A DNA stretch of 63,936 nt, filler included, from Perkinsus olseni (lineage: Eukaryota), in assembly GCA_013115125.1 (NCBI GenBank). It is 3 parts of 3 records of this genome, joined end to end, with 100 filler letters (N's around TTAATTAATTAA, not from the genome) between each part and the next. Parts side by side here need not be neighbours in the genome. Positions count along the whole stretch, not along the records: positions 22,246 to 44,382 come from JABANN010000545.1; 2 more parts are not named here. The stretch is one strand, 5' to 3'. How positions within the stretch are numbered: position 1 is the first letter of the stretch; the number at the start of each line of letters is the position of its first letter. Shown one piece after another: positions 31,436 to 34,400 of this stretch. Under the pieces are notes generated by a model. It was not told the origin of the DNA, ran no database searches, and saw nothing but the letters and a program-made list of their open reading frames with translations. The translations under genes and the position numbers were made by a program.

Positions 31436-34400
31436 TCAATGTTGTCTCCTCTCCATGCCCTTCTTGATTCGGGCTAGTTGACGTTTGGTCTCCGAGTTGG
31501 GCAACTCGTCAATGTTGTAATACCCAGGAGCCAACTCAAGCAGCCATTCCCCCTTGATCTGAGCGAAAGATACTCACAAAAGAAATCTTCATAGTGCGAT
31601 AATGGACAGGAGATCAGCGGAGATTTATAGACCAGTAAGACTAGTGAAAGGCGCCTAGTCGTCCCCTATTCTGGGACTGAGAGAAAATTGTCAGACTAAG
31701 TTTGAGTATGTCCCCTTATTCAAGGTGGCATCAGTCTCCTACCATCCGAGCGTGCCTTGAGTGTGTAAAGGCAAGGCAAGGCAAGTCTCCTGTTTCCTAC
31801 TACTGTTCGGACTCATGATTGCCTTCCGTTTGAAGTATGATTCATCCCGAGACCCTATCACGCGAGCTAGATATGAGCATAAATGTCATTTGCATATCAA
31901 ACTGGCACACACAGTAGCCCTCCCTTTCGATTCATTCTTATCATCAGCGATCACCGAAACGAGTCCCCACCCCCGCAGGATTCGCCCGGCTATTACCGTC
32001 ATGACGGTCCTGATGTAATTCTTGGCGGTCAATACCAACTCGTGGTAGAGGACCCATTCAGGCTTGTGTTGAATAACAGTAGACGGATGGAGCATTACCT
32101 GAGATTACCCGAACACGGAAAAATACCCTTCCCGGGGATCGAACCCACGACCATGTATTACAACTTGATGCTCACGAGTAGTGAGATAAACACCGGCCTT
32201 CTGCAAGTGAGCTACTTGCATGAAGAATCCAGATAGCATACACTTCCTCACATTATTTGCGAAACTGCAAGAGAGAGCAAGATAGCAAGTAACGCCCAAA
32301 GCTCCCGACCCTACTCCGGATGATTTCTGGCTAGACTAGGTGCGCTCAGACCCGCTCGATCCGTCAATCGCTTCAGCTGAGCCCGGACGTTCTCCGCCGA
32401 CTTCATTGTACGGTACTGAGAAAGGCCCCGTAATTTCGTGGCGCGTGACGGTGGTTCTGTATTACATTGATGTAGTTGTCCCAGCACCATTGAGACATCG
32501 CCCTCTCCACGCCGTTACACTGGACTTTGTAGGCCATGTAAGCATCGTATCTGCAGGTCATGTGCATGCGTGCAGCAGAAACCAATACCACTCCTTTCCC
32601 TACGCCTGCATCAGAGTAAGATGGTCCCCGTCCATGTGTACGAACTTCTGCTTGGCAGCGTCAGCCTCCTGCTGGACTTCCTTCGGTCGCAGGAAGCACT
32701 GCGGCACTGACAGCATTGCTATGATTGTCAAGGCCTCCTCTGTGCAATGGAACCTGATGACAGACCACAGAGTGCAATGGCCGAGCGGAAGGAAATGAGA
32801 AACTAATTCCCCCCAACGCATTTTCCGTCACTCTTAGTGGTTGTCCCATTAATCCTGCTCATTTCCGCTAGCAAGACTCAGCGAGAGTCAGACTCATTTC
32901 GCGTGGGCCAATCGGGAATTCCGAGATCGCCGGAATTACTGAATTGTCGTGTTCACAATTTCTTAATGAGACAATATTGACCTGTTATTGAGGGAAACCT
33001 AAATCTTTACGAATATTCAACCATCACAAAACAGAAAGAGAAAACAGTGAGACTACAGTCCTTCTATGTAGGCCCTTCCAGAGAAGATTTCTTCATTGCT
33101 TGTACATAAAAAAGGGCCCCCCTCATAACTTCGCATTGTGAACGCGTCACGGCTTCTAGTGGTCATCGATTAGAAGCTCTCATCGTCATCCAAACGGTGG
33201 TGTACCGAACTAGAGCCGCTTTCTCCTTACTTCGATTAATAAACCATCCAACCGCCGAAAGACCCTCGAAAGATGGTTGCCCGATTCATGAAATCTGGAA
33301 GGAGAATACTACCGTCCACTTCGCAGCAGCACTGCGGCCATCTGTGGCTCCACTGGGAAGTCGGCCATGGTCCGGCCGAACTCGGTAAGGTCTCCCTCTT
33401 CGTCGAGCGCTCCTAGGTAGACGAGAGTCTCCAACGCTCGCATCATGGTCTCGGGGGCCGGAGGGTCCATGAAGTCAAAATGGACCTGAGATGGTCGCGG
33501 GTTCAATTCCTGGCGACGGCAGCTCAGTTAGTACCAGATCGTCAATGCCGAGCTTCTTTAACGTCAAAACGACGGATGAGAGGTTCGAACGGAGGATCTC
33601 GGGGAAGGTAGACGCCTGCAAGTCACCGTAACTGAGAGCACACAAGATCCCTCACTTCCACCTGCCTCTCCGATCCCCCTACGCATTCTCCGTGTAGAGA
33701 CGGAAGCACTTGCCGGGTCGAGTTCGACCTGCCCGGCCCGCCCTCTGCTGGGCTGACGCCTGGGAGATGGGGGACACCAACAGGGACTCCATTCTCGTAC
33801 GAGGGTTGAACACTTTCTGAACAGGATAACGCAATGGCCTGTCCGGCGGCTCTCGTGGAAGGGGTGGCGGTCTTCTCTACTTCCACTGCATCCTGGTGAG
33901 ACCAGGATCTAAGTTCCCTCCCACCACACAGCGAAAGGATACGAGTTACAGAAAGGTTAGGAGAGCAAAAACAACGCTCCGCTCACCTGTTTGGAGAATC
34001 CCGGATCAACCACGTAGACGATGCCGTCAATTGTGATGGAGGTCTCCGCGACGTTGGTGGCCACGACGACCTTGCGGCCAGCAGGCCCACCCTTGTATCG
34101 GGGCGGAGGGGCCTCCTCGAAGATCTTCTGCTGTTGTTGCGGGGGAAGGCTCGAGTAGAGTGGCACCACTAGGAGTTCTCCGTGCTCCCGCATAGTACGC
34201 ATAGACGCTGTGCGCAGCTGCTTACAGGCGTTCTCAATTTCCTAACAAAAATACCCTACCAGGTGATCGAACCCGCGACCTCTAGTTCATGAGCAGGGGA
34301 TCCGTCCCCTCCGCCAAATCTACCGAATACTACCTCCTCTCCTGTTAGGAAGAGCAATATATCACCGCTACCAGCCGGCTCCTCAGTATGAATGTAAACT

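Follow-up and report, generated by a model that had tools for sequence, protein, structure and literature searches.

A short repeated module in minimal introns of Perkinsus olseni, a candidate introner-like element with likeness to the 3′ end of a tRNA gene

The window analysed here is a 63,936-nucleotide stretch of DNA from the shellfish parasite Perkinsus olseni (GenBank assembly GCA_013115125.1), assembled from three parts of three records with filler between them; positions 22,246 to 44,382 come from JABANN010000545.1. It carries a gene for a Prp43/DHX15-like helicase, and one intron of this gene (I5, the focal intron) had been singled out in a first-pass annotation as being almost entirely a 73-nt, tRNA-length element, possibly a relic of tRNA-Met, whose T-run followed by AG could supply a 3′ splice site. 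We find that the 3′ part of I5 belongs to a family of short repeats, termed here the T-module, that is concentrated in the smallest introns of the window, and we weigh the possibility that such modules give rise to introns.

The helicase gene and its focal intron

The host gene and the parts of its focal intron are as follows.

31442..35657, minus strand: host gene, DEAH-box helicase, Prp43/DHX15-like, with 15 exons and 14 introns
34242..34333, minus strand: intron I5 of this gene (focal), 92 nt, GT..AG, phase 0, placed by homologue and RNA
34287..34333, minus strand: non-repeated 5′ half of I5, with the 5′ splice site, an A-box-like motif, a hairpin and CTCATGA
34248..34281, minus strand: T-module copy in I5 (AGGTCGCGGGTTCGATCACCTGGTAGGGTATTTT), nhmmer 27.4 bits, E 2.3e-7

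The gene model was obtained by choosing, at each junction, the GT..AG pair that restores the sequence of the Perkinsus marinus homologue P0002. Exon 33987-34241 is 96% identical to the P. marinus proteins P0001 and P0002, and P0003, an incomplete protein of P. olseni, shows 100% identity to each exon of the window within its coverage, which makes this species the most likely source. Across I5 the homologue P0002 is colinear, reading ...FLTGEE and then EIENAC... in phase 0. Public sequencing runs, one of DNA (X1) and three of RNA from three studies (X8, X7 and X10), were placed on positions 22300-42200. RNA contigs of all three studies join 34240 to 34333 with 92 nt skipped, and contigs of these runs show joints at 14 of the 14 helicase introns; the DNA run, which serves as a control, shows none at I5 or at any other intron of the gene. 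The proposed intron is thus borne out by both the homologue-guided junction and the RNA joints across 34333..34242, and what lies there is a normal intron that is efficiently spliced out of the mRNA.

The string originally quoted for this intron matches the minus strand exactly over 34333..34242. Read on that strand, I5 contains the A-box-like motif TGGCGGAGGGG (34316-34306), a hairpin GGGGACGGATCCCC (34296-34309), CTCATGA (34293-34287), the B-box-like motif GGTTCGATC (34273-34265) and a run of five T (34251-34247), with the splice AG lying 5 nt past the T-run. The depth of X1 DNA does not rise over the focal intron, a measure that takes in only contigs at least 95% alike and is therefore silent on diverged copies.

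The T-module family

A short-word BLAST search of the intron against the window revealed that the recurring part is confined to intron positions 54-87, which correspond to the 3′ 34 nt (GGTCGCGGGTTCGATC..GGGTATTTTT), with matches of 30/34 in intron I13, 15/15 at 58.0 kb and 26/28 at 13.1 kb. A profile built from six seed copies and then iterated over the 63.9 kb found 10 sites at E<=0.01 and three marginal ones, a density of approximately one copy per 5 kb, against 0 sites and a best score of 8.5 bits in 20 Markov-1 shuffled windows. The consensus, AGGTCGCGGGTTCGATCCC.GG..A.GGTATTTT(T), has the layout (T)AGAGGTC-GCGGG-TTCGATC-13 nt-TTTT(T), and the copies end in four or five T on the B-box strand. 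The distance from the TTCGAWY heptamer to the T-run is exactly 13 nt in all six seed copies, and the core bases G9, C11, G15, G16, T18, C19 and A21 are invariant across 11 copies. The flanks and the 13-nt spacer vary freely from copy to copy. It was thus rightly recognized at the outset that the B-box and T-run part is a repeated element found also in other introns, and the further copy that had been noted at 12.9 kb, with TCGTGAACCAAAAGG, exists.

Upstream of the core the copies have nothing in common. Among the 60-nt segments preceding them, only 2 of 36 pairs are related at p<=0.05, and the first 52 nt of the focal intron match none of 36 other introns at that level. We therefore take the repeat unit to be a module of approximately 34-42 nt rather than one of 73 nt, and a ‘full-length’ element common to the copies is ruled out by their unrelated upstream halves. 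The T-module is accordingly described as a dispersed short element whose sequence looks like the final third of a tRNA gene, oligo-T terminator included; it is itself no tRNA and has not kept the fold of one. A scan of viral contigs with a degenerate T-module pattern gave 0 matches.

One relative of the module is arranged differently from the dispersed copies.

36267-36392, minus strand: 26-nt tandem array of 4.8 copies between the helicase and transporter genes, TRF score 238

This array is akin to the AGGGTA subfamily of the T-module, and aligns locally to the I5 module and to the 13.1-kb copy with p=0.001 in each case (each against 1000 shuffles). The existence of a module-related tandem array hints at amplification at the DNA level.

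Copies in minimal introns

A second gene, GalNAc-transferase-like and located at 3126-12654 on the plus strand, was mapped against the Perkinsus chesapeaki homologue P0127, with 22 junctions solved. In total 37 introns were mapped, 15 by RNA and 22 by homologue colinearity, the junction score of 8819-9458 being weak. Besides the copy in I5, T-modules and T-module-like matches were located at these sites:

32099..32161, minus strand: helicase intron I13, 63 nt, sense T-module at 32120-32153 (30.0 bits); RNA joint
34632..34675, minus strand: helicase intron I3, 44 nt, diverged sense T-module at 34640-34673 (10.5-11.0 bits); RNA joint
33486..33534, minus strand: helicase intron I8, 49 nt, antisense T-module at 33491-33521 on the plus strand (19.9-20.3 bits); RNA joint
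8083..8131, plus strand: GalNAc-transferase-like intron, 49 nt, sense T-module at 8093-8124 (21.6 bits); P0127 junction
8258..8310, plus strand: GalNAc-transferase-like intron, 53 nt, sense T-module at 8263-8296 (23.2 bits); P0127 junction
13071..13177, plus strand: putative 107-nt intron of a gene with its ATG at 12956, sense T-module at 13126-13156 (25.5 bits); placed by GT..AG and open reading frame (ORF) continuity only
58002..58079, minus strand: putative intron of 78 or 64 nt (two possible donors), sense T-module at 58016-58048 (25.4 bits); placed by ORF logic only
12883..12917, plus strand: intergenic T-module copy between two plus-strand genes, 39 nt upstream of the next ATG (23.6 bits)
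59320..59351, plus strand: T-module copy without a T-run (22.0 bits)
30667..30689, plus strand: partial T-module-like match (17.1 bits), antisense in a coding exon of a minus-strand gene

The diverged copy in I3 can be set against a maximum of 8.7 bits in 100 shuffled intron sets. Searches of Pfam with the ORFs beside the copies at 13, 48, 50.7, 58 and 59 kb returned nothing above curated cut-offs, and therefore the gene strand beside those copies is at most presumptive.

Six of the 37 mapped introns carry a T-module, in sense orientation in I13, I5, I3, 8083-8131 and 8258-8310 and in antisense orientation in I8. All of these hosts are shorter than 100 nt, such that 6 of 23 short introns and no long intron contain a copy. 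Within the two mapped genes, the 22 short introns amount to 1,295 nt and hold 6/6 copies, whereas the 14 long introns amount to 5,377 nt, or 81% of mapped intron bases, and hold none (P = 5.4e-5 under insertion proportional to intron length). When the 34-nt core is subtracted, five of the host introns retain 10, 15, 15, 19 and 29 nt and the focal intron retains 58 nt; the shortest mapped intron measures 44 nt. The minimal introns have their donor, of GTA type, 0-9 nt ahead of the module. The suggested link between the T-run and the 3′ splice site holds up throughout, as the end of the T-run precedes the splice AG by 5-21 nt in every sense intronic copy. A run of at least four T no farther than 30 nt from the 3′ splice site is present in 5/5 sense module introns, compared with 10/32 others.

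The tail ..TTTTT(C)GTTAG and the first exon bases (G)AAATTG are shared between I5 and intron 8083-8131 (34236-34246 and 8125-8137). In both places the exon bases encode residues that homologues conserve, and we regard the sharing as probably either a coincidence or a target preference. The exonic match at 30667-30689 is 23 nt long, lies in a low-complexity acidic region (..DAGIEPAPFDDE..) and, judged by eye, shares 19 of 21 positions with the 8093 copy. RNA contigs span 30201-30984 around it without a joint, and it could be an exonised fragment or a chance resemblance.

A candidate introner-like element

Introns generated by introners have similar sequence in unrelated genes and consist almost wholly of the repeat. 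The T-module is found in four helicase and two GalNAc-transferase-like introns, and in two further putative introns elsewhere, and it makes up nearly the whole of the intron in five cases, the focal intron not among them. Given that the module is confined to minimal introns, and that the remainders left by its removal are impossibly short, we infer that it founded these introns. Somewhat in preference to any other account, then, we lean towards regarding the T-module as an introner-like element whose T-run serves as a polypyrimidine tract. On this proposal a T-module would land and create an intron at its landing site, as introners do. The T-run of a sense copy, lying just before the 3′ splice AG, would then act as the polypyrimidine tract. 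In I8 it is an antisense copy that fills the whole intron. In I5, I3 and 8083-8131 no other stretch ahead of the AG is rich in pyrimidines, and the T-run is therefore likely to be the polypyrimidine tract of these introns, a role in 3′ splice-site recognition being the most plausible one for it. The focal intron may have been founded by a module, with its 5′ half added later, or a module may have landed in an existing intron of 58 nt.

We also offer a broader suggestion, which is doubtful enough that readers should treat it as speculative: Perkinsus may harbour an undescribed class of ultra-short introners whose core of approximately 35-50 nt has the look of a tRNA gene's 3′ end. A polypyrimidine tract and 3′ splice region would come ready-made with every insertion, and approximately one-quarter of minimal introns would belong to this class. 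Intron gain in Perkinsozoa would in that case be large in scale and possibly ongoing, brought about by an element too short for published screens.

The alternative that survives best is that a small mobile or duplicative repeat inserted into pre-existing introns and was tolerated there, its 3′ position reflecting selection for a useful T-run. The 58 nt that I5 keeps without its module would suffice for a working intron, copies are also intergenic and, in partial form, exonic, and introns that lack the module also commonly have an oligo-T close to their 3′ splice site, as noted above. Insertion of this kind should nevertheless have reached the long introns, which hold most of the available intron sequence and none of the six copies, and five of the hosts would previously have been introns of 10-29 nt, below the 44-nt minimum. 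We thus consider it unlikely, although it deserves to be kept in mind for the focal intron itself.

Tests of a tRNA origin

In the original proposal, the 73 nt in I5 represent a decayed tRNA-derived, perhaps tRNA-Met-derived, RNA polymerase III (Pol III) element, such as a pseudogene or the head of a short interspersed element (SINE), and constitute the most complete relic of a master element whose fragments lie in other introns. Several features are in keeping with this proposal. The motif TGGCGGAGGGG departs by one mismatch from the A-box consensus, and it lies 43 nt upstream of the B-box-like motif, which is a tRNA-like spacing; a match as good is found at 0.72% of 20,000 random positions. 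The T-run begins exactly 13 nt past the T-loop-like heptamer, and a separate A-box-like family, described below, is present in other introns.

Dedicated searches for tRNAs give a different picture. ARAGORN made 0 tRNA calls in the whole window, and its relaxed settings (-ps95, -ps90, -ps85 and -ps80) produced 1, 3, 9 and 42 calls, none of them overlapping 34242-34333; these numbers fall inside the span given by 10 shuffled windows. At gathering scores Rfam reported no tRNA in the whole window, and at E<=10 its tRNA model matched neither the window, a 381-nt segment, the 92-nt intron alone nor two other copies. The best tRNA-flavoured match was to mascRNA, on the 13.1-kb copy, at 13.5 bits compared with a gathering score of 42.5. 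Similarity to tRNA above the level of shuffled controls was therefore sought with both tools and not found. Two Rfam matches on the 92-nt intron alone were on the other strand and were discarded as noise, as were sub-threshold matches to PhotoRC-I, aCoV-5UTR, mir-555, snoRNAs, CyVA-1 and Methylosinus-1, which were far below gathering scores and in several cases on the wrong strand. A profile from the 3′ thirds of real tRNAs was considered and not used (26 ARAGORN calls in fetched loci gave 13 distinct 3′ ends, mostly of tRNA-Ala).

Structure and comparison among copies point the same way as these searches. The intron folds no better than its shuffled versions (z = +0.82, with 162/200 shuffles at least as stable), and the supposed anticodon stem CCCTG/ACTAG forms 1/5 pairs, so that the ‘CAT loop’ has no stem. 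The A-box match is good in the focal copy only, an oddity that was spotted after the fact; in the 10 other copies the corresponding region has 2-4 mismatches, which is the background level. T-stem positions pair in 67.3% of cells across 11 copies, a value equalled or exceeded by 374 of 500 column shuffles and close to the 63.6% obtained when the registers are slid by one, and no covariation of the T-stem was seen across the copies. A SINE-type head, with A and B boxes common to the copies, is absent from the family, the upstream parts being unrelated, and no copy of the A-box-like family (AATTTCGTGGCG..) lies at tRNA spacing from a T-module, the only same-strand pair being 147 nt apart.

Although the motif strings are indeed present in I5, the 73-nt unit into which they had been assembled does not hold together, because its A-box is unshared, its CAT loop is stemless and its fold is no better than that of shuffled sequence; the repeating entity is the 34-42-nt module instead. 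The description of I5 as the most complete relic fails for a related reason, since the A-box and CAT half is unique to this intron and no full-length unit is common to the copies. We consider descent of the 73 nt from a tRNA or tRNA-Met gene to be improbable. Ancestry of the module core is a separate matter. Sub-threshold ARAGORN calls end in register at five module copies (13154, 32125, 12914, 33520 and 50739), and this is the sole tool-based sign of tRNA 3′-end geometry in the core. On the strength of the B-box consensus and the conserved spacing, a tRNA gene is a possible source of the module sequence.

Other explanations

It is similarly improbable, and if anything slightly more so, that the module is a selected cis-element, such as a site bound by a splicing factor or by TFIIIC, or a small nested Pol III gene, with no history of mobility. 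Invariant core bases in 11 copies and a consistent position relative to the 3′ splice site would be expected of such an element, but it is present in only 6/23 short introns, occurs in both orientations and outside introns, shows no structural covariation, has flanks and a spacer that diverge, and has a tandem-array derivative. Least credible of all is that a B-box-like word recurs by chance in short GC-rich introns: GGTTCGATC with at most one mismatch is by itself not enriched (24 occurrences in the window against 17.2 expected, with 7/100 shuffles reaching at least 24), but for the module as a whole chance is refuted by the results of the 34-nt profile and its shuffled controls, and the copies in I5 and I13 are alike at 30/34 positions.

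Considerations against intron gain by the T-module

Several observations weigh against the introner-like interpretation and should temper its use. The focal intron is its least compelling case, because 58 nt remain without the module; the earlier idea that a T-run followed by AG could supply a 3′ splice site is compatible with our data as a whole, but the intron for which it was proposed turns out to be its weakest example. Neither terminal inverted repeats nor target-site duplications were seen for the T-module in alignments inspected by eye, and a check by eye for flanking direct repeats beyond the splice consensus likewise revealed none, and so there is no transposition mechanism to point to. 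Nor is the element confined strictly to introns, given that one copy is intergenic and another, partial, is antisense in an exon. Intron I1, at first called a family member by eye, received no support from the profile and was dropped. The bias in orientation is only suggestive, with approximately eight sense copies, two antisense copies and three to which no strand is assigned. The introns at 13.1 kb and 58.0 kb were placed by ORF logic, and the sample consists of one 64-kb window with two mapped genes. With regard to the likeness to tRNA genes, the Rfam tRNA model never matches and the T-stem does not covary, so ancestry would be read from the B-box consensus and from geometry.

A scan of metagenomes with P0002 recovered 80 loci at 58-63% identity as uninterrupted matches of approximately 2 kb; no close perkinsid was among them, and the scan is therefore silent on the age of the introns.

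A second short family and other observations

A second family of short repeats, (GT)AATTTCGTGGCGCG.., has nine copies that score 12.1-16.5 bits and none in 20 shuffles. The copies are the following.

6806-6874, 7095-7116, 13792-13810, 14823-14841 and 18477-18496: second-family copies
32431-32450: second-family copy, antisense in helicase intron I11
48311-48328 and 59173-59191: second-family copies
6845-6862, minus strand: second-family copy

In two GalNAc-transferase-like introns this family begins exactly at the donor (AG then GTAATTTCG..), and in the 69-nt intron 6806-6874 it forms inverted ends of 13 nt in the manner of a miniature inverted-repeat transposable element (MITE). Three copies read TGGCGCAG.. 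and are thus A-box-like. The family is unrelated to the T-module, and homology between the T-module tail and the head of the A-box-like family was rejected on the basis of 0 matches. Because X1 DNA contigs have loose ends at both borders of the I11 copy (six at 32431 and five at 32451), near-identical copies of this family must occur elsewhere in the genome. Viral contigs scanned with a 20-mer of the A-box-like family gave 0 matches. The 97-nt GalNAc-transferase-like intron 5363-5459 holds, between T-runs, three GGTAATTT(A/C)CTG units in tandem, and these units resemble the head of the AATTTCGTGG family.

Short words common to several introns and distant loci were encountered repeatedly. A 19-nt piece of intron I4 (AGTACCACTCCTTCCCCAA, 34506-34524) has an exact repeat at 30351-30369 and recurs at 27278-27295 with one mismatch over 18 nt, and intron I10 likewise has pieces that reappear at 60116-60129 and at 62902-62914.

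The sequencing runs also provided some incidental observations. The loose letters TTGAGCCAAG.. end an X8 RNA contig at 35657, the 5′ end of the helicase mRNA, and similar loose ends are present in X7 RNA at 22366 and 29910. The reverse complement of TTGAGCCAAG presumably corresponds to the 3′ end of the dinoflagellate and perkinsid spliced leader, which it resembles, and loose ends at mRNA 5′ ends suggest spliced-leader trans-splicing. Against a baseline of approximately 200, the depth of X1 reaches 1133 in bin 31596-32259 and 15763 in bin 41556-42200, with contig breaks and loose ends at 31817-31888 (within I14) and 41556-42200. These spikes are high-copy repeats, one in a helicase intron and the other adjoining the run of N at 42217-42312. 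Beside the intron-rich helicase gene lies an intron-poor ORF of 570 uninterrupted codons (36823-38535, minus strand) that is covered by high-depth RNA contigs and that looks like a gene for a peptide transporter of the POT/PTR2 type.

Implications

It has long been asked how new spliceosomal introns arise, and no mechanism is better documented than introners. If the T-module proves to be such an element, introners would extend to Perkinsozoa, the sister lineage of dinoflagellates. A core of approximately 34 nt would then be nearly enough for an intron of 44-63 nt, and little sequence would be needed to found one. Screens based on similarity would overlook short, diverged families of this kind. 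Through the likeness to the terminator end of a Pol III gene, oligo-T as a signal in transcription would be linked to the polypyrimidine tract as a signal in splicing. Such repeats also matter for gene prediction in Perkinsus genomes.

Comparison with known systems

Introners have been described in Micromonas, Aureococcus, fungi and dinoflagellates. Like them, the T-module is a near-identical sequence of which introns in unrelated genes, at unrelated positions, are composed, and in minimal cases it fills nearly the whole intron, one intron being filled in antisense orientation. Unlike them, it is much shorter (a 34-42-nt core in hosts of 44-63 nt), more diverged and devoid of terminal inverted repeats and target-site duplications visible by eye. 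Among surveys of introners (PMC9860276, PMC12130899), the former uses an intron-pair BLAST E<=1e-5 as its screening threshold. A 34-nt module with approximately 85% identity would probably fail such a screen. In the literature searched we found no paper linking Perkinsus to introners, noting that supplementary species tables of the surveys may list this genus, and none pairing ‘introner’ with ‘tRNA-like’. The main texts of the two surveys (PMC9860276, PMC12130899) do not mention Perkinsus, SINE or tRNA, and their supplements may differ.

The introner elements of Amoebophrya, a parasitic dinoflagellate, offer a second comparison. They form non-canonical introns with inverted repeats of 8-20 nt that join the ends and direct repeats of 3-5 nt at the borders (PMC7789003). 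That system resembles ours in being a repeated intron family, found in a related myzozoan alveolate parasite with a compact genome; unlike its members, the introns with T-modules are canonical GT..AG introns, and the T-module has no such repeats (PMC7789003).

Mobile elements and tRNA-related sequences share some traits with the T-module and differ in others. It lacks the terminal inverted repeats and target-site duplication of a MITE-type DNA transposon, none having been seen by eye. In a Pol III-transcribed tRNA gene, the B-box consensus is followed by 13 nt (5+7+1) from the loop to the oligo-T at the gene end. The module is like tRNA genes, pseudogenes and SINEs in having the B-box-like GGTTCGATC after AGGTC and the same 13 nt from loop to oligo-T. 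It is unlike tRNA genes in having no cloverleaf, no covariance-model score and no conserved T-stem, and unlike tRNA-derived SINEs in having no common 5′ head with an A-box and in ending in oligo-T rather than in an A-rich or simple-repeat tail.

The exonisation of Alu elements uses an antisense poly-T tract and adds a new exon within an intron that is already present. With the T-module, too, a repeat would bring the T-run that serves a nearby AG as its polypyrimidine tract; the difference is that the T-module appears to supply a whole small intron instead of an exon.

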